NCBI GenBank assembly: GCA_028534125.1
Contig: CM052851.1
Location: 40,672,001-40,736,000 of the forward strand
Length of the DNA stretch: 64,000 nucleotides
Reading direction: 5' to 3'
From: Lama glama
Taxonomy: Eukaryota
Below are positions 2,361-50,300 of the stretch, piece by piece. Below the pieces are notes generated by a model. It made no database searches and was not told the origin of the DNA. It saw only the letters and a program-made list of their open reading frames with translations. Both the position numbers and the translations under genes were made by a program. Each line of letters opens with the position of its first letter. Position 1 is the first letter of the stretch.

Positions 2361-2904
2361 CACCAGGCAGTGTGCTGTGAGGTGGGTAAGAGCACGGACA
2401 GAAGGGCTGCTGGTAGTCAGAGGAGACACACTCCGTCAGGAAGGTCTCCTGCGGGGGTTTGAGGGGAAGGCGAGGAGGCGAAGGGTGGGTGTGTCAGTGA
2501 AAGTGGGCACCCCGGTACCGTGCACTCGACACGCACTGTTGCAGATTCTCAAAACAACCATCTGAGGTGAGGATTACTTTTCCCATAACTGCAGATTAGG
2601 AGATTGAGGCTCAGAGAAGGTATATGAATTATCCAAGGTCCCACAGCTGGGAAGAGGCTGAGCTAGGTTTGAAATCCAATCTAACCCTTTGCTTTTATCC
2701 AGAGCTGTATCCTTGGAGTGGGAGTGGGGCACTCAGCCCACCTGCCTCACCCTGCTCCTTCCCTGGCGGGAGAAACGAGGCTAGTGCTCTGCCGGGGTTT
2801 TGAGTGGTGGGGATCAGGTGGTGAGAGGGAGCACTGGCTTCCCTGGAGCTGACCATCTCTCCGTACACAGGCCAGTGTGAATGGCAGGAGCATCCGTGGG
2901 CACC

Positions 2905-3035
2905 ATGGCGAAGAGGGAGGACAGCCCTGGTCCAGAGGTCCAGCCGATGGACAAGCAGTTCCTGGTGTGCAGCATCTGCCTGGATCGATACCGGTGCCCC
3001 AAGGTCCTGCCTTGCCTGCACACCTTCTGTGAGAG
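2905..3035 (+). CDS. TRIM3: TRIM3 first coding exon (RING N-half)
   Basis: [44 protein letters not shown]; acceptor cag|2871, Kozak caccATGG, donor AG|gtgag. Confidence 0.96.
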
Positions 3036-6000
3036 GTGAGGGCATGTGTACTGGGTAGGGATGAGGGCCTTGCAGGCCCCCTGGAGAAGGGAGTGATGTG
3101 TGTAAACCTGTAAGAGGTGAGGGAACTGTGTGTACATGTGGAAGGGAGCAGATGAACCCCAACCTGCAGAAGGTGAGTTTTAGATGCAAGAGCCTGTGAG
3201 AGGACCAGAGGTTCCTAACACTGGGCCATGCTCCCTGCCCAGAACAGGGCCATCTCTGCCTCTTCCCCATCCACAAGGCAGCCTTCAACCCCACCAGAGA
3301 AATCAGACAGAGCTGAGACCCTCAACCAGCTTTGGCACCAGAAGTCTGGGACCAGTGGGAGGATGTTCGAAGCTAGGTCTGTCCCCCAGGCTTCATTGTC
3401 ATCCTGAGCACTGAGTGAAAGGCAAGAAGCCTCTGGGCTTCTATCTGTTATTCACTCATTCAACAAATATTTATTTATCAAGCAACTATGATGTGTCAGA
3501 CCTGTCCCAGGTACTGGGCAGGCAGTGGTAAGCAAAACTAGATATGATCCTTGCTCTTAAAGAGCTTACAGTAGAGTGAAGCAGAAAGATAGTCATCAAA
3601 TCATCATACAGCCAGACTACAGATAACTGTCCTATTGCACCCTTAATGAGTGCTGCAGAGAAAGTGATAAGCAATGAGAGCTTAGCTGGGATCTGTTATA
3701 GGTTAGAGAACTGGGAAGGCTTCCCCGAGGTGCGATCCAGAGGCTGGCTGGGCGTTAACTAAATGAAGGGAGTAGTAGGAGCCTTCCAGGCAGGAGGCAG
3801 AACATAGGGAAGGGCCATGTGGTGTGAGGGACTGTGTTGGTCAGAGGTCCTGGAGGGAGCCCAACGAGGCTGGAGGGGAGCAAGCGTGGTGGAGCGTGGT
3901 GTGGGATGGAGCTGGAGAGCTGGGTGGAGGAGGCCAGACTGCAAGGGGCTTTGCAGACCTGTTGGGGCATTTGGCTCTTCCCCTGAGAGCCATGTGAAGC
4001 CTTTGCAGGGTTTTATGCATAATCACTTCTGTATTTTGACAGTATTCTCTCTGCAGCCCTCATCCCTCATTGCTGTCTCGAGGGTCCTGGTCCCTGGGTC
4101 CCTTCACTATCGCCTCCTCCCACGCCCTCCTCCCTTCACAGAGAGTGGGCTCGGCTGCCCTTCCAGCCCTGCTCTCTCAGATTCCAGCCCTACTGCTCTC
4201 TCCTCTTCATCTGGAAACAGCTTCAGCCTTCCTGCCTATTCCAAGTTCTTTCATCAGCCTGGTGACTTCACTACCCACTTAAGCCTCTCAGTTCTTGACT
4301 GTTTCTCCAGGGACATCCTCTGTGCCACCTGTCAGACTCTCTACCAGTGACAGTGTGGATCTTGCCATCACCCAGAATAACACCACTTCTTCTATGGTTA
4401 CAGACTCCAGTATCCCACTCCTGGCCCCCCTTGCCCCACTCTCACTACACCAGCTTTGGCTGGATGTAGACATCCAGCACCCTCGACTGCTCCCTCTTCT
4501 CCCAGCCATCAGCTCCCTCCTGGCCTCCCTTTCTTTCCTACCCATCCCTGATCCTATGGCGGACCACAAGCCACCACAATTCCTGCACACCTTTGTCCTT
4601 TTCTAAACCCACGCAGCAGAAGCTTGATCCTGGATCAGAGCCGTAATTGGACGTCTCTGCACCTTTTCCTACACTCAGATCACTGAGCACTCCTGGAGAA
4701 AATCAGTGCCTGAGAAATTACAATGATAGCTACCATGTATTGATTGCTTACTATTTGCCAGGGACTGGCTAAGTGATTTACACATATTGATTTACTTAAT
4801 CCTCACAACAGATACTTTATTATCCCCATTTTAGAAAGGAGGAAATTAGGGTTCAGAGTCATTAAGTAATTAAGAAATATTTCTAAGGCTCCATAGCAAG
4901 TAAATAGTCAAGGTTTGAATACAGGTTTGACTGCAGAGCCTTCTCTCTTAACTACTCATTCATTTATCCCTTGGTCCCTGCTCTCAAAGACTTATGCTCC
5001 AGTGGGCGGTGATGGACAGTAGGCAAGCTAATAACCAAACAGGAGAGTCACAGCTTGGGTTAAGTGTTTTGCAGGAAATAAACGGAGTAAGTGGGGGTCG
5101 TTGGGCCAGGGGCTAGTCTACGTAGAGTCATCAGGGAAGGCTTCCCCAAGGAGGTGACATTTGACCTGAGGATGAGAAGGAAACAGATGTACAGATTGTT
5201 CTAGGCAATGGGAACATCTTTGAACTGTTCCATGCAAAGGCCTTGAAGAAGTAGTAGGCAGGGCATGTTCAGAGACCAGAAGAGAAGCCAGCGTGACTGG
5301 GTGGAGAGGAAAGTGGGATGATGTGAGGTCCAAAAGAGTCAGAACAATTCATGAGGGAGTTTGGGGATTTGAGGAAGAGTGTTTGGGTTTTTAGTTAAAA
5401 AAAAAAAGTGTTTGGGTTTTTTTTCCTAAATGCAGTGGGAAACCACTGGAGCTTTTTTTTTTTTTTTTTTAAGCAAGGAAATAATGTGACACAAATTAGA
5501 TTTTTTTAAAGCTCACTCTGGCTGCTGTGTGGAGAACAGATTACAGAGATGCAAGAGTGAAAACAGGAAATCAGTTAGGAAACCATCCTAAGCCAAGTAT
5601 GCGCAACATATAGGAAGGAGATCTTGTTGACTTGGAAGGTATTTCACAGGGAAAACCCCAGGTTCAGCAAGCTGGGAAGAAAGCTACAGGGGAATGGAGT
5701 GGAATGGTTGAAGTGCAGATTTCAGAGTTGATGCAGTGACGGGTGATGAGACATGCGTGGTGCTCACGGGAGCATGGGAGTGGACAGCTGAGGTGAAGTG
5801 AAGGAAGAGCTCACAGTGGGGTGAGGAGGCTGAGGTACTAAAATCTTGATAGTGGTGGGGGGGTCACCCTATAGATGTCAGAGCCACTGAGCATGATGGC
5901 AGGAGGGTGTGTTAGTGGAGGTATGGATAATGGAAGAGAGTGCACCAGAAGAAAGACTTCAGCAAGGGGAGAAGCAGCCACGATGTCAGTGGAGACGATA

Positions 6001-9000: not shown

Positions 9001-12000
9001 TGCCCCAACCATGAAGGCAAGGTGGGCCCAAGCAGGCCCAGTGAGGCCAGGACTTGGGGTGGGCGGGGAGGAGAGGTCGGGGGAGGGGCCGAGTGGCTGT
9101 GGGTGAGAGGGTGTTTCTCTGGATAAGCGGTCCAGGTAGGGGGACGCACCTGGAAGGGGAGAGGCGAGGAGGGCAGATGAGGGAGGAGAGGGGACAAAGA
9201 AGTTTGGTGTCTAGTCTTTGCCTGACTAGAGTCCTTATGCTGCCAGACGATGGAGTTTTACTGTGAGGCCTGTGAGACAGCCATGTGCGGGGAGTGCCGC
9301 GCGGGGGAGCACCGAGAGCACGGCACCGTGCTGCTGCGAGACGTGGTGGAGCAGCACAAGGCGGCCCTGCAGCGCCAGCTCGAGGCGGTGCGCGGCCGGT
9401 AGGCGCCTGGCGGGAACCCTGGCTGGTGGGGCCTTACGGGATGGTGTTTTAACAGGACAGGGGAGGGGTCCCGGGGAGGGAGAGACAAAATTCTCAGGGA
9501 GGGAAGGGGGGTCTCAGGGAAGGGGAGTCCTGGACGGCAGCAGTAGAGAGAAGGAATGGTTTGGTAAGGGCACCCTCAGGTGACCCCGGTATGAGATGCT
9601 TCCCCTCCCCAGACTGCCACAGCTGTCCGCAGCCATCGCCTTAGTAGGGGGCATCAGCCAGCAGCTGCAGGAACGCAAGGCCGAGGCCCTGGCCCAGATC
9701 AGCGCAGCCTTCGAGGACCTGGAGCAAGCGCTGCAGCAGCGCAAGCAGGCTCTGGTCAGCGACCTGGAGGCCATTTGTGGGGCCAAGCAGAAGGTGCGTC
9801 TGCCCACCCTATCCTACCACCGTCCATCATGAAATGGCTTTATTGCCTCCATGCTTCCCTTGCTTTCCACACCTGTGCATCCATCCCTAGTCTATAGTTT
9901 CTGCCTCCTGACGTGGCCCATAGGTGCTGTGGGCATCTCTGTCCCTTGTCCACTCTCACCCTCTTTTATTTTTTTCATGCCACAGTACTACAAGCTCAGC
10001 AGGAATTAGAGGCACTCACCTAAAATCCCCTCTCCACTCCCTGACCAGTCTGCTCACCCAGTCCTCCTGTAACCCCTCCTCAGGTGTTGCAGACGCAGCT
10101 AGACACGCTGCGCCAGGGGCAGGAACACATCGGCAGTAGCTGCAGCTTCGCAGAGCAGGCCCTGCGCCTGGGCTCGGCCCCAGAGGTGTTGCTGGTGCGC
10201 AAGCACATGCGAGAGCGGCTGGCAGCGTTGGCGGCACAGGCCTTCCCGGAGCGGCCCCACGAGAATGCGCAGCTGGAACTGGTCCTTGAGGTAGATGGGC
10301 TGCGGCGCTCGGTGCTCAATCTGGGAGCGCTGCTCACTACGAGCGCCACTGCGCATGAAACCGTGGCCACAGGCGAGGGCCTGCGCCAGGCGCTGGTGGG
10401 CCAGCCTGCCTCGCTCACCGTCACTACCAAAGACAAGGATGGGCGGCTGGTGCGCACAGGCAGCGCCGAGCTGCGCGCAGAGATCACCGCCCCCGACGGC
10501 ACCCGCCTGCCCGTGCCGGTGGTGGACCACAAGAATGGCACGTACGAGCTGGTGTACACGGCACGCACCGAAGGCGAGCTGCTCCTCTCGGTGCTGCTGT
10601 ATGGACAGCCGGTGCGCGGCAGCCCCTTCCGCGTGCGTGCCCTGCGCCCTGGGGACCTGCCACCTTCCCCCGACGATGTCAAGCGCCGCGTCAAGTCCCC
10701 CGGCGGCCCTGGCAGCCACGTGCGGCAGAAGGCAGTGCGTAGGCCCAGCTCCATGTACAGCACCGGCGGCAAACGGAAGGACAACCCCATTGAGGACGAG
10801 CTTGTCTTCCGCGTTGGTACAGAGGGCGAAGGGCAGAGCCAGATGAGGGTGGCACAGGCGGGAGTAGGGAACAGGGCGGGGCCAGAGGCTGAAAATGACC
10901 ACAGTGTGAATTTTTTAATTTCCATCCTATCTCTTCCCCACAGGCAGTCGAGGAAGGGAGAAGGGTGAATTCACCAACCTACAGGGTGTGTCTGCAGCCA
11001 GTAGCGGCCGCATAGTGGTAGCAGATAGCAACAACCAATGTATCCAGGTAAGCCCTCCCCCACCACCAAAATAAAGGTTTTCAAGTTACAGCTTCTTAAA
11101 AAAAAAGAGAGAGAGAGAGAGAGTATACAGGTCACCTCCTGAAAGATGAAACCCTACAGATAGGGTTCCTTAATGAGCAATGAATCATAGCACCACCTCT
11201 CACCCACCTACTTGCCACCCCTTCCTCACTGGCTGCGCAGTAACCAACATGTTCACAGCTAGGCACCAGGGTTGACCTTGCTGGCAGCCCCTACCTCCCA
11301 GGCTGTGGCTTAGACCCAACCAGCTCCTGGACCCCAAAGATCTGGTTCATTCTTCCTTCCCCTCTGCCTCCACATAAGCCTCCACCTGGCTGACTTACTT
11401 TCTCCCCTTTTCACCACCACATGGTCAGGATGCAGGCTCTGCCCTTCCCTGCTATCTTCCTACTGCCTGTGTGGCTCCAGAATGTGTGTTGTCTCTGTCA
11501 GTCTCTGCAGACATCCTGCTGACTAGACAGTCACATTGGGGTAACTTGTGAAAAGGGGCGCCTCCAGTGGCTAGACCATAGTGCAGTCTCATATGTGGTC
11601 CTGCCCCTGGCCTTCCCAGGGCCTCACACCCCTGAGTAAAGCACCCACCACATGAATGGACAGGCCTCTGCTGTACTTCCAGCTCCTTAAAGCCAGAAAA
11701 TGTTTTTTACTCTCTCTATTCACTGTCGTGAGCCTAGGAGCAGGCAGAGCCTAGTGGCGGGTGCCAGTGTGATAGACGCAGTACAGCAGGGAAAAGCTCA
11801 GGCTCTGAAACCAGACACCTGGGCTTGAATCCTAGCTCTGTCACTTACTGACAAGTCATGTGACACCTCCAAGCTTCGGTGAACTCATGTGTAAAATTAG
11901 GAAAAGAATACCTCATAGGGTTGCTGGGAGCACTGAGTGACATAATGTACCATGCCTGACACCTGGTGAGCCTTCTAATGTTAGCTGTTGTTGAAAATAT

Positions 12001-15000
12001 CATTGTCCAGGTGGAGGCTGTAGACAAAAGCCAGGAGGTGGGAAGGTAATGGAAGGGGTTGTTCAGGGAACTCGAAGGATCCCAGAGAGGCTGGAGGTGG
12101 ATTACGATTAGGAGTTGGGCAGCTGAGGTCACGCTGTAAATGACTTTGGAGAGGAAGCTGTGGGATTTTGATTTTATCCAGGATTATTTCTAACTGCTGT
12201 AAACTTTCAGTTCTTGGGAACATTTTATCAGGTAGCAAAACTTTTCCCTGAAGATCCTTACATCACATCTGAACATTTAAACTTCTTACTGACCTGCTGC
12301 CTGGGTACCCCATCACAGATCCAGCTCTGCCAAAGGGCTGTCACCTCCATGCCAGCTCCTCCTGGCCCTTGCTGGCCACCTAGCCAACTGAAGGTGCCAG
12401 GAAATCTTACGGGGGCCCAGGAAGACGTGCCACTTTGTCTCCCCAACAGGAGGCTGTGCTTGTCCCTTGTTTCACAGCATAGGGACTTAAGAGGGAGGAC
12501 CCAGTCCCTTCTGAACACTTGTTTTTCCTACAGCCGTCCTCCCTGCCCCTGGTCCCAACTGTACTCCAACCTTGTAGCTTCTAGGAGCCTGGCTCTCAGA
12601 TTCCAAAGCAGTTTCTCCTTCTCTTACTCTGGGGTCCTCAGGCCTGGTATGGGCCAGGCTCCCACATGGACTATGGCTCCCTACTTAGTTCATGAGGATT
12701 GCAGTCCTCTGAACTTTTCCCCCTTTGGACCTGGCTCTGGTGGTGGTAAATCCCCTCCTTGTGCTGAATCAGCATCAGCTGACAGAAGAGAGAAAACATT
12801 TTGTGATTTTGAATGAAGAATATGATTTGTATAACATCCTGGTGTGATTGTCTTAGTCTAGAAATTCTATCAGCTCTTCCATGAAAATGTCCTCATTTCC
12901 TTCAGACAGAATGTTAATCACATTCTCCTCTGAGCTCCCTCAGCCTTTTGCCATAGTACTTTGCATACTTTACCAGAATCACTGGCTTGTTTGCTTTATT
13001 TTGCTTTAGCTTCTCTCTCCCCCGACTCGACTCAGATCCTGAAGTTGCTTACTGCTACCATGGCATAGGAGAAAGATGTTCAGGACCAAATTAGGGCACC
13101 AGCAGATTCTAGAGATAAGGAAGCAAATACAGCCAGTTTCCAGGAGCCCTCAGATGTCAGGGCAAAGGGAGGGATCAAGAATTGCAGGCTGGGTGCCCTG
13201 GGTAGGTGTTGCCATTCAGGAGCAGGCCTGGGAGTGAGTTGATGAATTCGCTTTTGTGCGTGTTGAATTGGAGATTGCTGTGCAGCATCCGAGTTGAAGC
13301 TGTCCGATTCTGGTCTGAGACTGAGCTGAGGAATTCATGCATTTGTTAAATGTCTGCTGTGTGCCAGTTTGCCCCACCAGTGCTGCAAATGCAGCAGTGA
13401 ACAGAACAGACACGGTCCCTGCTTTACCTGGAGCTTACATCTTTGGCAGGGGACAAGGATATTTAAGAGCTATTTAGTCACAGAAATGACAGTGGGTATG
13501 AAAAGAGCTAAAACACATATATCATGGAGACCTAACTTTATGTATGTGTGTTGGTTCAGGGAGTGGAGTTGGTCATTAAAAGCTGCTCTGAAGAGGTGAC
13601 TGGGAAATTCTGAGAACTGGAAAATGAGTAGGAGTTGGCCAGGTGTAAGGGGTGGGACAGGATGGGATGGGAAGAGCAAGACAGCCCCCACCCCACCCCC
13701 CACCCCTGCCAAGCCTCAGTGTTGAGCTGGAAACTACGCTGCCGAGGCTGGAGGAGGCAGAAGTGTTGCCACAGTGCTGATCTGGTGGTAGCTCTAAGTC
13801 CCTCTCACAGCAGCTCTTCAGCCCATGGTGCCTACCTTCTTGTGCTGACAAGTGCTGTCCAACCACGGCGGAGCAGTGCAGAACCCAAAGGCTGTTCTGA
13901 TCAGCCAGGGGAGGGCAAGATTCAGGGTCCACATCAGGAGGGAGTGATGTCCATTGGTGGGACCAGTTCAAACAGCCCTGCAGGCCTAAGAAATGGGGAT
14001 GGTACAGGAGCAGAGGGACCAATCCATTAAGAAGGGAGCAAGTTTGGATCAGAGAGCAAGGCCAGTTTCTCCAGTGCTGCTCCTGACTTGATTCATCTTA
14101 TGTCTCTAGAGCCTCTAACAAAGCAGTGTGTGAGATGTGTGCAGTGAGTGATGTTTTGGCTGTGCAGGAGAGGCCAAACGGCTTAACTCTAGAGGAGAGG
14201 AGCATTAAAACAGGCGCTTTTAGGATGGGGAGACCTGAGCGTGTTGGGCAGCTAAGGTGGAGGAGGTTGGAGAGGGCAGGAGTTTGAAGGGTTTAACCCT
14301 GTCTGGGAGGAAGGTCACCGTATCAGCCTCACAGCCCGGACGGGCTATCCTTGTCCATCCCCCTACCCTCACCTGCCCCTTCCTTGTCTGCTACGAAGTC
14401 TTACTGAGTCTTCCTCCTCCATGTCTCTTGAGTCCATCTACTTCCCTCTAGCAAGCGGTCCAAGCCAGCGTCATTTCTCACCTGGACCACTGCAGCACCT
14501 CTGACTGGTTGGCTAGCTTCCAGTCCTGACTCCTTCCTGCAGCCAGAGTGCTCTTTCTGAAAAAGCTCCCATGTGTTTTTTCCTACACCACCAAGCAATT
14601 CTCCAAGTCTCAGTGAACACTGACCAGGGGTCCTGTAAATTTGATTCAATTCTGACACTGTCCACCTGGAGATAGTGTCACATCCCACAGGTTAAGGGCT
14701 CAGTCCCGAACGACTGCCTCTACTTCAGACGCCAATTGAAAGTTCGGCTTGTCGCCTGTACTGACCGACTAGCTGTAAATTGGAAGTTCCCACAACCCAC
14801 TTTTGGGGTTTAATTAATTAGCTAGAGCAGCTCACAGAACTCCAGGAAACATTTAATTATGTTTACCAGTTTACTATATGGAATACAGATGAACAGCCAG
14901 GTAAGAGGTATGTAGGGTAAGGTCTGAAAGAGTCCCTAGTGTAGGAGCTTTGGTTCCTGTGGAACTGGGGTACACACCCTTCTAGCACCAATCCGGAAGT

Positions 15001-18000
15001 TCATCAAATCTTGTTGTTCAAGAGTGTTTAGAGAGCTTAATCTGTGCTTTCCACCCATTCTCCTTCCCAGTGGTTGGTGGGCAGGGCTGAAATTTCCAGC
15101 TCTTCAATCGCATGATCTTTCATGCGACCAGCCCCTCCTGAAGCCATCCAGGGATCTCACCCTACGTCTCCTCATTCGCATAAGCTCAAAAGGGGCTCCT
15201 TTTGAATGACAGAAGACACTCCCATTAATCTAGAAATTCTGAGGGTTTGAGGAGCTCTGTGCCAGGCACGGGGGACAAATACCAAATCTATTTCTTATTA
15301 TACCATCAAAGCAAATCTCATCTTGTCCCTCACAATTTTCAGTGAATCCTCATTATACCCAGAATAAAACCTTTTTCCTTTTGTTCTTTATGGGCCTGCC
15401 TGCTGCAATCCAGCCACACTGGACAGCAGCGTCTGTACTGGACTCTGTGCCTTTTACACACTGATGATTCTGCTTAAACACCTTTTTTCCTCCTTCTTTA
15501 CCTGACAACTTTGGTTCCTCTCTTAGCATCCTTATTAGGCTCTTAGCTCAGATGGCCCCTGCTCTTGGAGCCTTTCCTGACCACCCCCACCCCTTTCACA
15601 GTCTTACAATCCCATTCTCCCCTCTGCTGCATGTCCCCTAAGGTGCAGGCTGTGTCTGAGTCTTCTCTGTACCCCCAGCAGGGTGTCGGTAAGTACTTGC
15701 TGAATGAGGAATGAATGGAGGTCTCCTCCCTCAGGATCCTGCTCCCTTCCCTCTGTGCCCACAGTCTCTCCCCTCCTGCCTGCTCCCTCCCTTGCTCCTC
15801 TGCTCCAGGTTTTCTCCAACGAAGGCCAGTTCAAGTTCCGCTTCGGGGTCCGAGGCCGCTCGCCTGGGCAGCTGCAGCGCCCCACAGGAGTGGCAGTGGA
15901 CACCAACGGAGACATTATCGTGGCAGACTACGACAACCGCTGGGTCAGCATCTTCTCCCCTGAGGGCAAGTTCAAGGTGAGAGGCCTACTGTCACTCTAC
16001 TCTGCACCCCTGGTGGCCAGCTGAGGTGACCATTCTAGTGCCTCCTGGTGGTCAGGTCCTGGAATGCTTGGTCCATCCCCAACGTGAGGTTCTGCTTTGC
16101 TGCCAGGCTGGGACTACTCTCCCACCAGGCAGGTTAGAGCCCCTAANNNNNNNNNNNNNNNNNNNNNNNNNNNNNNNNNNNNNNNNNNNNNNNNNNNNNN
16201 NNNNNNNNNNNNNNNNNNNNNNNNNNNNNNNNNNNNNNNNNNNNNNNNNNNNNNNNNNNNNNNNNNNNNNNNNNNNNNNNNNNNNNNNNNNNNNCCGTTT
16301 TGGGGGTCGTGGGGCCACTGACCGCCACTTTGCAGGTATTGGGGGAGAATTCAGATACCTATTCTGACACCCCAGTCCTAGAGAGCTTGCCTGGGTGCCC
16401 CAGCTCCAGAGACCCCTCCTGCTATATTTTGGCCCTAGGGGACCCCTCCCTTCATGGTGTCCTAGTAGCACCATCCCAGAGACCTCCCCATCTCCTAGCA
16501 CCCCAGCTCTCTCATCCCAAATGCTCTTCCCCATCCCACTCAGCATCCCAGCTTACTGCCAGAGAGCCTACTTTGTATTTTCAGGGCCCCATTTTGTGGC
16601 TGTGAACAACAAGAACGAGATTGTAGTGACGGATTTCCATAACCATTCAGTGAAGGTCAGTGTTCCCCCTCCCTCCAGGACCACTGTCCCAACATCCTTT
16701 CCTCTTCCACAAGACTCCTCTCCCCCTCACTTCCTTCTTTTCTCCCTTGAGATCATTGATTTGAACAGTCAACATTCATGGCATGGCTCCGCTGTCCCAG
16801 GCACTATGCTAGAAGCTGGGAATACAGTGATGAGTAAGGCAAATATGTTCCTTATCTTTTAGGAGGGGTGTGGTCCAGTAGGGGAGAGAAAAAGGTGCTA
16901 GGATATTACAGTGTGATGTGATAGATTCTGTGATAGGGGAGTGCAGGGAACTGGGGGAAGGCGTAGCAGGAGCATTTGATTCAGGTGAGACAGAGAATGA
17001 CCTAAAGCACAAGTGGGAATTAACCAGAAGGAGGAGGGACAGGAGGAGCCAAGAACTAGAGGTGGGAACCCTTACCGTGTAGTCAAGGAATTCCAAGTAG
17101 TTCAGACTGGATTTGAGGAGGGGAGTGGTTCCAGGTGAGAACGGGGCTGGCTCATTCCCTTAAGGGGCTTCCTCTCTTCCTAAGAGCCACGGGGAGTCAC
17201 TGAAGGATTGCGGGCATCAGGGTGATGCAATCCTGTGTGTCTCAGAAAGATTGCTCTGGCTGGGGCGAGACTAAAGGCAGGAAGATCAATCTTTTGCAAT
17301 CATCCAGATGAGGACCATTGCAGTGGCAGTATGTGCATTGGGTACAGATTGAAGATAGAATCAGCGGGTTGTGGTAATTCATTGGCTGTCAAGCAAAGGA
17401 GAAGGTGGAGTCGAGAATGACTCATGGACACCTGGGTGTTGCCAATCACTGAGAAAGAGAACATAGAAGAACTGCTTTCCCTGGGAGGATGAGCTGTTAG
17501 ATCTGAGATGCCCAAGGGACATCAGCTGGCGACGTCCAGTAGGCAGTGAGATGCATGGACGTGAAGCCTGGAAAGAAGAACTGGTTTGTAACTGCAGATC
17601 TGGGGGTCCTCAGCCCTGGGACTTCACCTCTTCCTCCTCCAAAGCCCCGCCCTCTGCCTGAGGCCAGGTCCCCAGTCCCCAGCCCTCTCCCCTGCCAGGT
17701 GTACAGTGCCGACGGAGAGTTCCTCTTCAAGTTCGGCTCCCACGGTGAGGGCAACGGGCAGTTCAACGCCCCCACGGGAGTAGCTGTGGACTCCAATGGG
17801 AACATCATCGTGGCTGACTGGGGCAACAGCCGCATCCAGGTGAGGCAGGCCCAGGGATGGCATGAGGGGGAGGTTTCCTGCTGGGCCCCACACACCCGCC
17901 TCCCAAGATGCTGCCACCCACCTGATCTCACCTACACCTCCAATCTCCACTCCTCCCNNNNNNNNNNNNNNNNNNNNNNNNNNNNNNNNNNNNNNNNNNN

Positions 18001-18114
18001 NNNNNNNNNNNNNNNNNNNNNNNNNNNNNNNNNNNNNNNNNNNNNNNNNNNNNNNNNNNNNNNNNNNNNNNNNNNNNNNNNNNNNNNNNNNNNNNNNNNN
18101 NNNNNCTCCAGTAG
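2905..18114 (+). CDS. TRIM3: Tripartite motif-containing protein 3 (RING-B-box-coiled coil-filamin-NHL E3 ligase), whole CDS span, ~744 aa
   Basis: join(2905..3035,8790..9021,9247..9398,9613..9793,10084..10816,10944..11047,15809..15976,~16167..16335,16585..16655,17699..17839,~17962..18114). All visible junctions are GT-AG and phase-consistent; total 2235 nt if the masked exons are human-sized. Non-coding exon 1 not identified, probably upstream of the window. Confidence 0.97.
4725..4950 (-). mobile_element. MIR SINE
   Basis: ttaatcctcacaac..attatccccattttaga..ggaaattagggttcagag..ctaaggctccatagc. Confidence 0.7.
8790..9021 (+). CDS. TRIM3: TRIM3 exon (RING C-half, B-box start)
   Basis: [37 protein letters not shown]...CPNHEGK; ccag|...|gtggg. 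Confidence 0.96.
9247..9398 (+). CDS. TRIM3: TRIM3 exon (B-box)
   Basis: [51 protein letters not shown]; GT-AG. Confidence 0.96.
9613..9793 (+). CDS. TRIM3: TRIM3 exon (coiled coil)
   Basis: [60 protein letters not shown]. Confidence 0.96.
10084..10816 (+). CDS. TRIM3: TRIM3 exon (coiled coil + filamin domain)
   Basis: [17 protein letters not shown]...[11 protein letters not shown]...GSPFRVRA...EDELVFRV; 733 nt. Confidence 0.97.
10944..11047 (+). CDS. TRIM3: TRIM3 exon (NHL1)
   Basis: [35 protein letters not shown]; cag|...|gtaag. Confidence 0.96.
11780..11990 (+). mobile_element. MIR SINE
   Basis: ggctctgaaaccagacacctgggcttgaatcctagctctgtcacttactg..tgtaaaat..tacctcatagggttg. Confidence 0.75.
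14572..15305 (-). mobile_element. MER21-family solo LTR in TRIM3 intron
   Basis: Reverse complement begins tggtataataagaaatagatttggtatttgtcccccgtgcctggcacagagctcc; typical MER21 core on the + strand (caattctgacact..cctggagatag..cccacaggttaagggctcagtccc). Confidence 0.8.
15809..15976 (+). CDS. TRIM3: TRIM3 exon (NHL2)
   Basis: [56 protein letters not shown]. Confidence 0.96.
16167..16335 (+). CDS. TRIM3: TRIM3 exon (NHL3), 5' part hidden by N run; start inferred
   Basis: Visible 3' end [13 protein letters not shown]|gtatt; start inferred from the recalled 169-nt orthologous exon, which fits the frame. Confidence 0.8.
16585..16655 (+). CDS. TRIM3: TRIM3 exon (NHL4)
   Basis: [24 protein letters not shown]; ttttcag|...|gtcag. 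Confidence 0.95.
17699..17839 (+). CDS. TRIM3: TRIM3 exon (NHL5)
   Basis: [47 protein letters not shown]. Confidence 0.96.
17962..18114 (+). CDS. TRIM3: TRIM3 last coding exon (NHL6), mostly hidden by N run
   Basis: Only CTC CAG TAG (L-Q-stop, the TRIM3 C-terminus) visible at 18106-18114; start inferred from a 153-nt orthologous coding part. Confidence 0.78.
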   Translation, partial: XXXXXXXXXXXXXXXXXXXXXXXXXXXXXXXXXXXXXXXXXXXXXXXXLQ

Positions 18115-18511
18115 CTGCACAGGGGCCCTGCCTGGCTCATGGAGGGACGGACATAGGGGTGATTGGACAAGATGGTCTGGCCAGAAAGTGGGCCAGACCT
18201 GGCAGCACTGAATGTGGGCTGCGGGCGTCAGTGCGCCCAGTGGCCTCCCTCTCCCCATCTCCCAACCCCACGGTTGCACTTTATTTATTCGGTTCTTGCT
18301 TTGGTGACTGGGTGGGCCTGGACTGTTGTCCCAAGGATGTGTGCAGAGCTTCACCCTCCCCTCCCCACCTCCACACCTCCCCGTCCCCTCAGTCTGCTCC
18401 CCATCCCCCAGCCTGGGGCCAGAACAGCCTCATACTCCAGGGCAGAAGTCCCTCTGGTTGTCTCCCTACCACCCGTACACACTGACAGAGACAGCAATAC
18501 CCCACCCCCAT

Positions 18512-18521
18512 ATTAAATAAA
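18512..18521 (+). terminator. TRIM3 polyadenylation signal
   Basis: Overlapping ATTAAA/AATAAA followed by a GT-rich downstream element (ggttgtgttgtttt). Confidence 0.8.
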
Positions 18522-18699
18522 TGCGTTCACCAAGATGGTTGTGTTGTTTTCTTGCGGGCTGGGAGCGGAGGGGATGGCGGGACCAGATCTGGACTAAAAG
18601 GTGGGCAAGCAGCCAGGGAGGGGACTGATTCCCAAATGTGCCCTGATGTTTTGAAGCTTCAGGAGAGGAGAGCGAGAGAGAGGGAACCCTGGGACTCAG

Positions 18700-19975
18700 C
18701 CACTGTAAATGCCTGCCCCCAGGCCCACATCTTCTGTAGAAATAGTAAATCCTTTGGCTGTCTGCTGAGAGGAGCCTGGAAAAATGACCCTTGCCGAGAA
18801 CACAGCCAGCAGCGGCCAGGAGAACAGTTGCAGGGATGGTGGGCATCCTGGAAGCCCGGGCCTGGGCCGGGGACCAGGGACAAGCCCAGGTGGGAGCTGG
18901 GTGTGGGAGCCTCCGTGGCCAGCTCTAGGGCTCAGTCCTGAAGCCTGGGAGCAATGCTTCATCCCCTTGTTCTTCATTCCGTGACTGCTGCCCCTTCCCC
19001 ACAGTGGAACAAGGGTCCCAGCACCCTGGCCCAAGCCCTCTTTTGCCAGGGTTTGGCTGCCAATTCCGGAGATAATTACCACCAACGCTCAGTGACTGGG
19101 GAGGTGGCACTGTGGTTTCTCCCGCTCTACAAATGGCTGAAGCTGCTCTTCATCGCTGAGGAAGAGCAGAGCCCAGGCTTGAATCTGTAGCTGTCATGCT
19201 CCTAACTGGGCAGTGACAGCACCTTACTCATTCTCATTCCCCTTGCACCCGACACGGCAACTGGCACAGAAGACACTCACAGGATTTGGGGAATGATGGA
19301 TCTGGGAAGGTTGGTTTGTGAGACTTTGTGGGAAAGTTCAAGACTTTGTCCTGGTGTAACAACACGACTCCTGGAGCAAGATGGGAGAGCTTGTCCATGG
19401 ACCCGTGGGAGACAACAGGGGCTTTGCAGGGATCAAGGGGCACTGTGTGGACCACAGGGAAGTCTTGGTGACATTCACCTCCCTGGTTTTTTTGACCCCA
19501 CTGGTTGGGATCTGGTAGGCAGGTGGAGGGACATAAGAACTCCCTGAACTCTAGGGCAAGCATCTTTTTTATTTTTAATTCTATTTTTTATTGAAGCATA
19601 GTCCATTTACAATGTTAGTTTCATGTGTACAGAAAAGTGATTCAGTTATACATATACATACATATATTTTTTCAGATTCTTTTCCATTATAGGGTAAGCA
19701 TTCTTACAAGGCCTATACTCCTGGCCGATTGTGGGTAGGATTGCCTGAGCCCATGCCCTGACCAGCAGAGACCATGTGCTCAATCATCAGTCACTTGGCA
19801 CCAAGGGGGCCTTCCCTGGGAGCCTCAGTGATGGTCTGTTCCTCCCTTGCACTCCCACCCTGAGCAGAGCACTAGCAATGACACTGAGGATGGAAACTCA
19901 TAGTTTCAGCCCTCAACATCTCCGTGCTTACAATCTGGACACCTAAAGTTAGCGAGGGAATAAGATGGCAATAAA
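18700..19975 (+). pseudogene. Putative decayed B-box/NHL-repeat (TRIM-NHL-like) gene relic
   Basis: Frameshifted motifs CPQAHIFCRNSKSFGCLL; QGLAANSGD..SDWGGG; IKGHCVDH..VLVT..FDPTG; ILLADCG*DCL. GT-AG intron 18890-19004; AATAAA at 19970; interrupted by an L1 fragment. Confidence 0.4.
19565..19692 (-). mobile_element. 5'-truncated L1 3' end (cetartiodactyl type) with TSD
   Basis: T-rich tail, then ttattgaagcatagt..tttacaatgttagtttc..tgattcagttatacatat..cagattcttttccattatagg; flanked by tagggcaagcat / tagggtaagcat. Confidence 0.75.
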
Positions 19976-22240: not shown

Positions 22241-23100
22241 GTCATGTAAGGCTTTAGAGGATGAGACGGAAGAAAAAGTGAGGGGCGTCTGGGAGTAGCA
22301 GCATCCAGTGCCCAGCAGCTGGCGGTGGGGGTGGGTAGAGCAGGTCCAGCCAAGGATGCCCTGCGCTGGGAAAAGGTGGGTGTCAGGCACCTGTCGTGGG
22401 ATCTGTGGCACTGCCCATGCTGCCAAGGGCTTGGTGAGTCCAACTTTATTCACTAACTTATGAGGAGGAGTGAAGTTAACAAGGCACATTTTCATTGTAA
22501 GTCAGGAGAGGATGTTGAGATTGATGGCTGAGGCCTGGTGACAGATTGTTGTCCAGTCCCAGAAATCTCTGTCTTCCTATTAGGAGGAACCCTGGCACAG
22601 TTGGTAAGGGACCTGGGACCTGTGCTGAGGTTATACAGGGGAATGTCAACGGCATGGCACCTTCTGAGACGTATCAGGGGCCCTTCAGGGCTGGGGAACA
22701 GGGGTCCTGGAACCTCAGCCTGGCCCAGAGCTGACTTTGCACATATTTGTCTTCTGACTCAGCAACCTCAGGCTTGTCTCAGATGGAAATGGGACAGCCT
22801 TCGGGAGTGGCCCCGGCTAATACTGAAGATAGCAGGTACTAGAGATAGCAGGTGAGATCCCAGGGCTGGAGGAGAAGAGATATATAGGGCTGGGACCCTG
22901 GAGAGAGAAACAAGATCTTAAGATGAAGGTCAGTGCCAAGGAGACCTATGACTCCTAGAGCCAATATTCCCCCATCATAACACATCTCCAGTCCTGAAGG
23001 AGGAAAATTGTCAGAAATTCTGCTGCAACATTAGTAATGCTAGTCAGTACTTGAAATCAATTTTTTTCATTTATTTCAAATATTTATTGAGCATCTCTAA

Positions 23101-23555
23101 CAGGCATACCTCATTTATTGCACTTTGCTTTACTGTGCTTCACAGATACTGCATTTTTTACAAATTGACGGCTTGTGGTAACCCTGAATTGAATACTTTC
23201 CAACAGCATTTGCTCATTTTGTGTCTCTGTAATTTTGGCAATTCTTGAAATAGTTCAAACTTTTTCATTAATGTTATATTTGTTGTGGTGATCTGTGATG
23301 TGACTCTTGCGGAAAGATTACTACTCCCTTGAAGGCTCAGATGACAGCATTTTTAGCAATAAAGTATTTTTAAATTAAGGTATATATTTTTCTTTAGACC
23401 TAGTGTTCTTATACACTTAATAAACTACTATAGTGTAAATCTAACTTATATATGCACTAGGAAACCAAAAAATTTGTATGACCCAGTTTATTGTGAGGTT
23501 CACTTTATTGTGGTTGGTCTGGAACCAAACGTGTGATATCTCCAAGGTATGCCTG
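23101..23555 (+). mobile_element. Tigger1-derived non-autonomous DNA transposon (TcMar-Tigger)
   Basis: Terminal inverted repeats CAGGCATACCT...AGGTATGCCTG with Tigger1 subterminal sequence; inserted into an L2 3' end. Confidence 0.85.
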
Positions 23556-23670
23556 GATGTGCCAGGTACTAGTTTAGGTGGGGAAGATGTAACTATGTAA
23601 GACAGGCAAAACAGAAGAAAAAAAGCATAAGTAAGCAAAGCGTAAGCAAAAGCGTATTAGATAGATGACA

Positions 23671-23784
23671 TTTTTAAAGCTTATTTTTATTGAAGTATAG
23701 TTTATTTATAATGTGTTAGTTTCAGGTATACAGTAAAGTGGTTCAATTATACATATACATATATATTCTTTTTCAGATTCTTTT
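23671..23784 (-). mobile_element. L1 3'-end fragment (same family as 19565)
   Basis: ttattgaagtatagtt..ttagtttcaggtatacag..ttatacatatacatatatattctttttcagattctttt. Confidence 0.7.
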
Positions 23785-47330: not shown

Positions 47331-50300
47331 GTACCTTGTGGAGACTGACTGGAGAATGCGGGAGGGCAGGAGGGCAGAGGGTAGGTCCCCGCATACAGAG
47401 GCCAGGGCCAGCCTGGGTGTGAGTCGCAGAGCCCGTGTCCCCAGTCCTCAGCTGGCCATGCCCAGGCTCTCCGAAGGAAACTGTCCCTACATTCCGAGTG
47501 CTTGAACAAGTTGACAGACCCACCCATCACACACCCCGTGATGGATTATGGACTCGGTCTGCTTGTGGGGCACTTACCAGGTGCCGGCCCTGTGCTCAGC
47601 CTTACTGTATTTAGTCCTCACTATAACGTTGTGAAGTAGATACCATTATTATGCCCATACTGCTGGTGACAAAAAAGAGCACTTAGAGAGGCTTAGCCCT
47701 TTCCCAAGGTCACAGGTAGCCTGAGATCACAGTGGTCCTGAGATCTACACCAGGTCCAAGTGTGGACCTGAGCTCTTGGCCCTGCCTTATGCTGTCACCG
47801 ATGCATACAGCACGATGGGCCCAGGTGCACCCAGGACAGTTTGTAGCAGGCAACACCTCCCCACCGGGGTCTGTTTGGAAAGGCCAGGGGTGTTATGTGC
47901 AGAGCACAGTGCTGGGCATTGCAAGAATGCTGTTTTGTCAGGAATAGGATATTGGCTAAAAGTTAGGAAACAAAGGAAGAGTCAACATGCTTCATTGGGC
48001 TGGGGGGATAGATATTAGCACTCTGAGGATTGATCATTAAATGTGTCCCGTTTAAATAAATTGGGTCTCTGCATTTGCTGGTGTCACTTAGAGATGCAGA
48101 CAGAACTGAGGAGCAGAGGGCTGCAGCCGCAAGCCCGGAGCGGGTTGGAGTGTATGGAAGGACTCCTCTGGCACCAGGCAGCAGGCACCATCCCCACACC
48201 CCAGGCTGGGGGACCTTTGACGGGAGCATGTGGCTCAGATGAGCCAAGAGCAGCACGCTACCCTCTTTCAGAAGCTTACTATGGGCCTTTTCAGGCATAT
48301 ACAGAAATAATAGAATAAGGAGCCTGATTTACCCATGACCCAGTTTCAACAATTAGCAACACATGGCTAACCTTGCTACATCTATACCCCAAGCTACTCC
48401 TGGGCCCCACCCTAGGTTATTTTGAAGCAAATATGTAAATGTTCACTCATGCATTTCTTTCCTTTTTTTTGGTGAAGTACAATCAGTTACAATGTGTCAA
48501 TTTCTGGTGTACAGCACAATGTCCCAGTCATGCGTATACATCATTCATGCATTTCCAAAAGATAAAACTCATCCAAAAAATCCACAATAGCAGTATCATG
48601 CCTACAGAAATTTAACAATAATTCCTTAATATCACAGTTTCCAGTCAATGTTTACATTTCCCAGTTGTCTAACAAGTGTCCTCTTGCCCCTTTGATTTGA
48701 TTCTTTGCATCAATATCCAAACAGGAGCAGACTTTTTGATGGTCGATACATCTCAGAGTTTCCTGTGATCTATACATGATCCCTCCCTCTATTTTTGCTC
48801 CCAGTTTTGTTGCTGTATTAATTGAGACCACTGCGCTGTTTGTCCTGGGCTTCCTGTGGCCTGATTTTGCAGACTCCTCCTGTGTGGTGTTGAACATGGT
48901 CCTCTCCCCCTGGATTCCCCGTAAATTGGCAGTGAGCTCTAGAACCATGGTCAGGTTCAGATTTGAGGGTTTTGGGGCTTTGTTTTTGCAAAAATACTTC
49001 ATAGGTGTTGAGTCCTTTTGTCAAAGACACAGTCTGATTGCCTCTCTTTTGAAGGATTCTAGTGGCCATTGATAGTCAGCGCCTGGATCCTCCTTAAAGG
49101 GAACAGCTACTACTCCACTCCGGCTGCTCATTTATAGGGTTGAGCAGGGAAAAGTGTAGTCTTGATGGACCCAGTTCATGTAACTTTTCAAGGGAGACTG
49201 AAAACTAGATATTGATGCGAAACATCCTAATTTCTAAATGTTAACAACCAGTTCTGCTTTCTAAAAAGCACCACATAGGCCACACAAAATCTATCTGAGG
49301 CTTGCATCCGTCTGCAAGTTGCTTGTTTGCTACCCCTGCCCTAGGGGGTGTGAGTCAGAGGCCAAATAACGGAGGACCTGGTTGCTCAGGGCCTCCTGGA
49401 TGGTCACTTTTGTGGCCTGGTCTGTGAGCCTGCCAGGAGTGGGAGGACAGAACTGCTGAAGAGCTGGGAAAGGAATGCTGGGTGCGGGCAGCGGCCTCAG
49501 CAAGGGAGCGGGTGTGACGAGAGATCCTGAAGGATCCCGCTCCACTGGAGGCTGTGGAAGTGGAGCGTAGCGGTGCAGGGCCAGCCTATATCACTGCTTT
49601 CTCTTGTGACCGTGTTGTTATCACCAGGAAGGCCACAGAGGAGGTCTGGGCTCCTGCAGGAATGTAGTAGAATTGATTAAACATTATTTTCTCCTTCCTA
49701 CCCTAGGATCTCCACAAAGTTGTTGATTGGATGCATGTATGTGAATGAATGAATGAATGAATGAATGATGAGTGAATGACGTTTACTACTTGTGTTGGGT
49801 TCATACTTGGTGCCAGGCCTTGTCCTAAATGTGAGAATGCGTACTGCAGGCGACAGATGTTCCTGCCCTCGTGACACTCGCAGTCTAGAGCGGAGACAGA
49901 AGTGAACAGGCAGTCTGAGCACTGGGGTGGGGGAGGTGCAGGAGGGGCACCCAACGCTGCCATGTACCCGGTGGGGGAGAGGGGAGTGGGTCAGTTTTGA
50001 GAAGCCACCTTTACACTGATGCCTGAGGGAGGAGTGGGTGAGGCCAGGTGGAGATCCAGGGGAGGGGGCTGGGCTCAGAGAGAATAAGGGGCATGTCCCA
50101 AGCAGGGCGAGAGAGACCAGGGGTTTGGGGGTGGTCAGAGGTAAGGCGGAGAGGCAGGCGATTAAGGCACACATGCCCTGCAGAGGAATTTGGGTTCTTT
50201 TGAGGGTGAAGAGAACAGAGTATTCAGCTGGAGAGAACTTTAGCATTTTGGAGCAATCATTTGGGCTGCAGTGTGCAGCCCAGGTTGGAGGAGACTAGAC

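Follow-up and report, generated by a model that had tools for sequence, protein, structure and literature searches.

The 1.2-kb stretch that lies directly behind TRIM3 in the Lama glama DNA analysed here may be the long-decayed remnant of a gene for a ubiquitin ligase that combined a zinc finger with an NHL propeller, a member of the TRIM32/malin branch that would once have stood in tandem behind TRIM3. We give this reading a probability of about one half. A finger-like part lies at the 5' end of the stretch and blade-like parts at its 3' end, both on the strand of TRIM3, and removal of an inserted repeat roughly restores the spacing of the blades. The membership of the candidate in the TRIM-NHL group is not established. 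The most serious competitor, which we hold to be quite possible though short of even odds, is that this is ordinary GC-rich single-copy intergenic DNA, in which chance motifs were gathered over three frames by a reader primed with TRIM3, and that the insert, the splice-like sites and the AATAAA are unrelated background. All other readings together take up only a small part of the probability.

The window, by which we mean the whole 64,000-nucleotide stretch that was analysed, carries TRIM3 on its + strand, with the RING exon near 2950 and the last AATAAA at 18516; hemopexin (HPX) exons start at about 24700, and at 46.6 kb there is an exon of APBB1, all these names being recognised from the translations. 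The TRIM32 of this genome is identical to that in a record labelled Vicugna pacos, which places the lineage among the camelids. Between TRIM3 and HPX, an AT-rich stretch at about 23100-23560 resembles what we take to be a fragment of a Tigger-type DNA transposon. The 3' end of TRIM3 is supported by a processed copy elsewhere in the genome, in which the 3' UTR match runs to 18518 and then stops; the candidate stretch thus falls outside that TRIM3 message. Processed TRIM3 copies matching window positions 10726-18518 were seen at L014 (G000:C824476:4502-6078) and also at L012 and L018, with exon matches that abut without introns at 76-88% identity, and L014 holds the 3' UTR up to the polyadenylation signal. 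A stop-free frame of 151 codons (18486-18941, + strand) begins at the end of the TRIM3 3' UTR and crosses the Cys/His segment, with C-x-H at 18522 and V-L-K-L at 18648 in a spacing close to that of TRIM32, which is probably a coincidence, as the frame overlaps the TRIM3 cleavage region. The features of the stretch are collected in Table 1.

Table 1. Features in and next to the candidate stretch, in window coordinates.
Feature	Position	Strand	Remarks
TRIM3 polyadenylation signal, AATAAA	18516..18521	+	Upstream boundary, outside the candidate remnant
ATG in strong context, possible old start	18574..18645	+	One in-frame TAA; reads into K-C-A-L
Cys/His-rich segment	18637..18821	+	Readable as a broken RING or a TRIM32-type B-box
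Short helix-like segment up to the putative donor	18818..18889	+	From sequence; can be aligned to the post-RING helix of TRIM56
Putative GT-AG intron, 115 nt, phase 0	18890..19004	+	GT at 18890, AG at 19003-19004; connects the helix-like segment to QGLAA without a change of frame
Weak blade-like motifs in several conflicting frames	19005..19400	+	First-blades profile null; malin propeller diagonal
Best NHL-blade-like motif, then FDPTG	19407..19505	+	Last-two-blades profile; two frames that agree in blade register to within 2 nt
Retroposed high-copy fragment of about 125 nt between direct repeats	19553..19705	-	Poly(T) left end
Terminal blade-like motif with in-frame TAG	19715..19747	+	From sequence and spacing
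AATAAA, possible old polyadenylation signal	19970..19975	+	From sequence

Every motif named in the original prediction is present in its place, letter for letter: CPQAHIFCRNSKSFGCLL at 18714-18767, RRTVAGMVGILEAR at 18818-18859, QGLAANSGD at 19047, SDWGGGTV at 19091, ESVAVMLLTG at 19181, IKGHCVDHREVLVT at 19432, FDPTG at 19491 and ILLADCG*DCL at 19715. Read in this order they involve at least five frameshifts, several stops and one insertion, that is to say, disabled frames such as a unitary pseudogene would have, and with its frames broken and interrupted by stops the stretch makes no such protein now. The possible start at 18574 stands 21 codons before the first Cys, compared with 19 in TRIM32 and 25 in malin. 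When the insert is cut out, the distance from the Pro at 19542 to the terminal motif becomes 43-44 nt, compared with 14 codons in TRIM2 and TRIM32. Only about 24 codons separate the Cys/His segment from the donor, too few for the coiled coil of usual length that belongs to TRIM-NHL proteins (subfamily C, class VII). The AATAAA at 19970 counts for little, since the window holds 66 of these signals on its two strands.

A clean intron had been proposed between the finger-like and the blade-like parts. The GT-AG pair is there and its sites are good, the donor ranking in the top 2.0% of GT and the acceptor in the top 1.1% of AG on approximate matrices; however, about 0.25 such intron-like pairs are expected by chance per 1.3 kb of one strand, which favours the chance explanation. 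In the alignments to malin and to the TRIM32 family, moreover, the segment is treated as coding sequence, which leaves the intron putative.

The Cys/His-rich segment had been taken for a B-box. The TRIM32 B-box does score well on it (13-21 of 2650 tiles as high), but the TRIM32 RING fits too (47 of 2650) and Pfam reports no B-box. The corresponding counts, again of 2650 tiles, were 104 for the TRIM56 RING with its helix, 206 for the malin RING, 1015 for the TRIM3 RING, which is null, 69-97 for the TRIM3 B-box and 304-557 for the TRIM56 B-box. A broad RING profile was null on the candidate, with 40% of tiles as high, as were the B-box and coil-linker profiles of the TRIM32 family. By eye, five of the eight RING ligand positions lie near the TRIM32 spacing; the residues on which the B-box match depends are missing from the TRIM32 family consensus. 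The alignment of the helix-like segment 18818-18889 with the post-RING helix of TRIM56 is, taken alone, not significant. Judged from these scores, the ancestral finger may have been a RING, a B-box or both, and the remnant does not tell them apart.

The signal in favour of a decayed ligase gene comes from a purpose-written aligner, which links successive motif matches, passes over the stretches between them that do not align, and was run with the insert removed. Control tiles were 786 non-overlapping pieces from 400 kb of the same genome and the rest of the window. A family profile weighted towards TRIM32, with blade matches at 19408-19473 and 19715-19747, scored as high in none of 100 shuffles, in one of 198 window tiles and in four of 786 genome tiles. 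The malin chain reached 100.7, a score attained by none of 100 shuffles in the first run, by 2 of 600 shuffles, by none of 300 shuffled-query controls and by one of 786 genome tiles; over five parameter sets, 2-19 of 600 shuffles scored as high. Summing the malin and family scores, whose correlation in the null was only 0.17, left none of the 786 tiles above the candidate, which thus ranks first of 787, and this speaks against chance. The TRIM32 chain was equalled by 3 of 100 shuffles with RING and propeller and by 14 of 100 at full length. The chains of NHLRC4 (54 of 100 shuffles as high), TRIM71 (53) and TRIM3/2 (31) were null, and so was the TRIM56 probe (264 of 786 tiles).

Much of this signal rests on one blade-like motif at 19407-19473. 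With this best blade masked, a residual signal remains that a purely fortuitous origin would not lead one to expect: 19 of 786 tiles scored as high for malin, 77 for the family profile and 14 for the sum. The profile made from the last two blades scores 38.9 at 19407-19466, above all of 500 shuffles and all of 764 window tiles and equalled or passed by one of 786 genome tiles; the match and the IKGHCVD motif lie in different frames, yet their blade registers agree to within 2 nt, which is what a small indel would produce. One control tile, on the minus strand of L140 and about 2400-4400 from the end of L140, reached 52.6 with the same profile, above the candidate, and may be either a chance match or a genuine propeller exon. 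The malin propeller on a tight diagonal over 19100-19516 was equalled by 10-13 of 1141 tiles.

A battery of 17 tests was then compared with 315 GC-matched tiles, so that the choice of the best among several probes is taken into account. The candidate was beaten by one tile on the sum, by two on the top five tests, by four on the top three and by 11 on the best single test, figures that are optimistic because the probes were chosen after the sequence had been seen. The tile that beat it on the sum has, judged by its reading frames alone, no obvious gene. For the dead zinc-finger-plus-NHL gene of the original prediction the outcome is therefore mixed: second place of 316 on the summed battery lends it some weak support and argues against chance, whereas the 11 tiles with a better single test and the silence of Pfam tell for chance. 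The signal is confined to the TRIM32 and malin probes, those of TRIM3, TRIM71, TRIM56 and NHLRC4 being null. Thus, the likeness to TRIM3's own repeats on which the gene had been proposed was not borne out (84 of 315 tiles as high), and the signal points to TRIM32 and malin. That it is limited to one branch of the family, on the same strand and directly behind a RING-NHL gene, also weighs against a fortuitous origin.

Other results favour chance. Pfam found no family in any of the six read-through frames, where a TRIM3 control exon reached 4e-10, and none in any of ten in-frame pieces; malin and an NHLRC4-like frame score strongly. The latter is an open frame of 315 codons at L121:1492-2436 (minus strand, G000:C10), in which Pfam marks four stretches of NHL and no Met precedes codon 296; the human protein is 123 aa long, and the coding sequence may have its start in an upstream exon and encode a fuller propeller. 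In a genome-wide scan with the NHL model PF01436, none of the 46 matches listed falls in the candidate. The weak matches elsewhere in the genome were mostly teneurin exons (four of the seven examined). On contig G000:C99064 the same NHL-bearing exons occur twice, inverted and with equal scores (L008/L009, L015/L016, L027/L028), which is likely an assembly artefact or a duplication.

A frameshift-aware local alignment to TRIM32 scored 43, against 38.8±4.2 for 100 shuffles, and a TRIM32 profile built from 121 sequences 39.4, against 32.9±2.8 for shuffles with maxima of 40.7-46.7; neither rose clear of its controls. Local Forward scores were null or marginal: those for the propeller were equalled in 7-19 of 200 controls, with a control region scoring higher, and a second run gave 14-84 of 300. 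A generic five-blade NHL chain was near null (40-68 of 300 shuffles as high). A PDB search with the best blade piece gave no match at E<=10, and the ESM Atlas gave for the Cys/His frame a top score of 0.78 and no family; with TRIM32 as query it returned chordate and invertebrate TRIM-NHL clusters. The comparison with Pfam and shuffled sequences by which the proposed gene was to stand or fall has accordingly come out divided, with no Pfam NHL or B-box score and a generic profile near null, but a weak frameshift-aware signal.

Balanced profiles of malin, TRIM32 and NHLRC4, whose power a real relic should raise, were null (27, 53 and 120 of 300 shuffles as high), which again favours chance. A broad three-part test set in advance gave 40% for the RING, 32% for the first blades and 1% for the last blades, and 224 of 7146 overlapping tiles when combined. 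The whole-gene Forward model returned -19 to -25 bits, with 18-81 of 198 tiles as high (47 of 198 for the malin model), below the +4 and -7 bits of simulated paralogues decayed by 30%. Only with the RING and propeller of TRIM32 did the whole-gene score exceed shuffles (2 of 150), and even then it did not exceed tiles (18 of 198). The codon-periodicity score of 8.7 compares with 4.7±5.7 in non-coding tiles, of which 19 of 79 score at least as well, and with 18.6±10.2 in held-out genes decayed by 20%; like the whole-gene model, it does not support a gene. Finally, the blade registers of malin, TRIM32 and the canonical repeat are incompatible with one another, so that some of the good-looking matches must be due to chance.

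At the DNA level, the flanks of the insert are single-copy at the sensitivity used, the 870 bases before it matching themselves alone. The search returned one match, the locus itself, and no match to TRIM3 DNA, where true processed TRIM3 copies are plain at about 80%. This bears on the idea that the stretch is a decayed tandem duplicate of TRIM3 itself, as its position directly behind TRIM3 and the TRIM2/3-like spacing, by eye, of the last two blade-like motifs might suggest. We regard it as very improbable and already largely refuted: besides the missing DNA match, neither a filamin exon nor the TRIM3 intron pattern was seen, and the TRIM3/2 NHL chain and the TRIM3 RING are null in the comparisons given above.

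A retrocopy or duplication of TRIM32, malin or NHLRC4 that arose long ago within the mammals would suit the single long coding frame that each of these parents has in this genome and the fact that TRIM32 and malin match best at the protein level. It is, if anything, still less probable. The DNA alignments lie at shuffle level (TRIM32 52, malin 35 and NHLRC4 23 of 100 shuffles as high); that of TRIM71 is borderline (5 of 100), over a non-NHL stretch. The DNA identity to a parent mRNA that a processed pseudogene of TRIM32, malin, NHLRC4 or TRIM3 should keep was not found. In simulations, the malin chain scored 76-120 on a paralogue after 20-30% decay and 518-1365 on a decayed malin copy (about 518 at 30%), compared with about 101 on the candidate, which falls inside the paralogue range. 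The lack of DNA likeness to TRIM32, malin and NHLRC4 and the far higher scores of the simulated malin copy indicate that the stretch is not a recent copy. With one DNA match, namely itself, and four paralogues aligned, TRIM71 at the borderline, the candidate has no parent copy in the genome, as is the case for unitary pseudogenes.

The fragment in the last blade had been described as a piece of L1 flanked by target-site duplications. The insertion, its poly(T) end, the flanking repeats and the high copy number are all confirmed; we presume the insert to be an L1 3' end. The direct repeats, at 19553-19566 and 19691-19705, differ by one substitution and one 1-base indel. Genome-wide, 2797 first-look candidates were found, and the 39 other copies that were scored are 84-91% identical. 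Poly(A) tail, target-site duplication and copy number are as expected of an L1 3' fragment. The copies differ by about 10% and the relic looks far more decayed, which suggests that the insertion came after the loss of the gene. Further fragments of the same repeat family lie in the window at 23670-23784 (84% identical) and 48462-48541 (72%).

The clean GT-AG pair, the AATAAA and the open frames of 151 codons (18486-18941) and 113 codons (19206-19547) could also mean that the stretch is still transcribed and spliced, by read-through from TRIM3 or as a non-coding RNA, which would preserve these sites and perhaps use one of the two frames. This too we consider very improbable, on a par with the retrocopy. 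Frames of such length are common, the first 32 kb of the window holding 94 with 90 codons or more, and the TRIM3 retrocopy ends at TRIM3's own signal. Fifteen of 24 sequencing runs hold at least half of the words, at 0.97-0.99, and RNA-like runs hold 0.04-0.11, which in itself is no evidence either way; the RNA or RNA-like runs listed do not exceed 0.11, about the share of the repeat insert.

No intact orthologue was found by sequence searches, and the protein searches have little power. A word-seeded search with the read-through frame 18711-19544 covered 1054 candidates, 152-487 aa long, and none of them reached E<=10. A search for TRIM32 homologues yielded, among the 120 of 208 matches listed, only TRIM32-like proteins of at least 59% identity, and a search with the TRIM32 propeller (164-524 aa) gave 56 matches and no new vertebrate paralogue, although it is insensitive, since it missed malin too. 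The matches listed in these TRIM32 searches were TRIM32, microbial propellers and one amphioxus protein. A profile search of the full library was uninformative, the 150 matches listed being 147 proteins of more than 1000 aa with many repeats and three TRIM32. A metagenome scan with a TRIM3 exon found 80 loci; the one contig with near-identical TRIM3 ends about 660 nt past the stop and has only exons in common with the window.

Nor was such a gene found in the literature, that is, in open-licence papers. In the passages on malin of PMC3160408, it is the only vertebrate protein found with just a RING and six NHL repeats, TRIM32 is its closest relative, and both are single-exon genes in mammals. 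TRIM subfamily C is given in the relevant part of PMC3503706 as TRIM2, 3, 32, 45, 56 and 71 and NHLRC1, and the duck NHL genes in that of PMC10445537 as TRIM2, 3, 32 and 71 and NHLRC1 only. Nothing bearing on the candidate was found in PMC3137616.

If the stretch is a decayed ligase gene, its history may be sketched as follows. A gene in tandem with TRIM3, coding for a zinc finger and an NHL propeller, would have lost its function long ago, the dead gene would have drifted until most of the similarity vanished, and a retroposed fragment would later have landed in the last blade. By analogy with malin and TRIM32, the product of the gene while it was alive would have been an E3 ligase whose finger recruited the E2 and whose propeller bound the substrate. 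We further propose, as a tentative extension that we hold to be rather doubtful, that vertebrates had one more RING/B-box-NHL ligase of the TRIM32/malin/NHLRC4 branch behind TRIM3, which disappeared before the placental radiation or early during it, which is present here as an unannotated unitary pseudogene, and which is intact and unstudied in some marsupials, monotremes, reptiles or amphibians.

TRIM32 is implicated in limb-girdle muscular dystrophy and Bardet-Biedl syndrome, and malin in Lafora disease. A true relic would add a lost member to their small branch, would supply a dated loss and an intact gene in an outgroup that could be studied, and would have a bearing on the origin of malin's stripped RING-NHL layout. 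If the resemblance is due to chance, it shows how convincing chains of motifs over three frames can look in GC-rich DNA. In either case the present coding content of the genome is unaffected, and unitary pseudogenes are a known class.

Unitary pseudogenes have disabled frames, a single copy and no parent gene in the genome, and are defined by an intact orthologue in an outgroup; the candidate is like them in the first three respects, and the orthologue was not found. TRIM3 and TRIM2 (RING, B-box, coiled coil, filamin and NHL) share with it the neighbouring position of TRIM3 on the same strand and, if the relic is real, the same broad fold family. However, the candidate is null in every TRIM3-based test and has no filamin part, and the NHL region of TRIM3 is distributed among several exons. 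TRIM32 (with a RING, a B-box, a coiled coil and NHL; TRIM subfamily C, class VII) gives the best local matches for both the Cys/His segment and the blades, but the candidate has about half its length, broken frames and no room for a long coiled coil and linker, and shows neither DNA similarity to TRIM32 nor a significant profile score. In malin and TRIM32 the finger recruits the E2 and the propeller binds the substrate. Malin (NHLRC1), with a RING, six NHL repeats and no B-box, is a single-exon gene in mammals and intact elsewhere in this genome, whereas the candidate has a putative intron and scores far below a decayed malin copy, and the malin register conflicts with the TRIM32 and canonical ones; yet among single proteins it is malin that gives the best colinear score, and its size is similar to that of the candidate.
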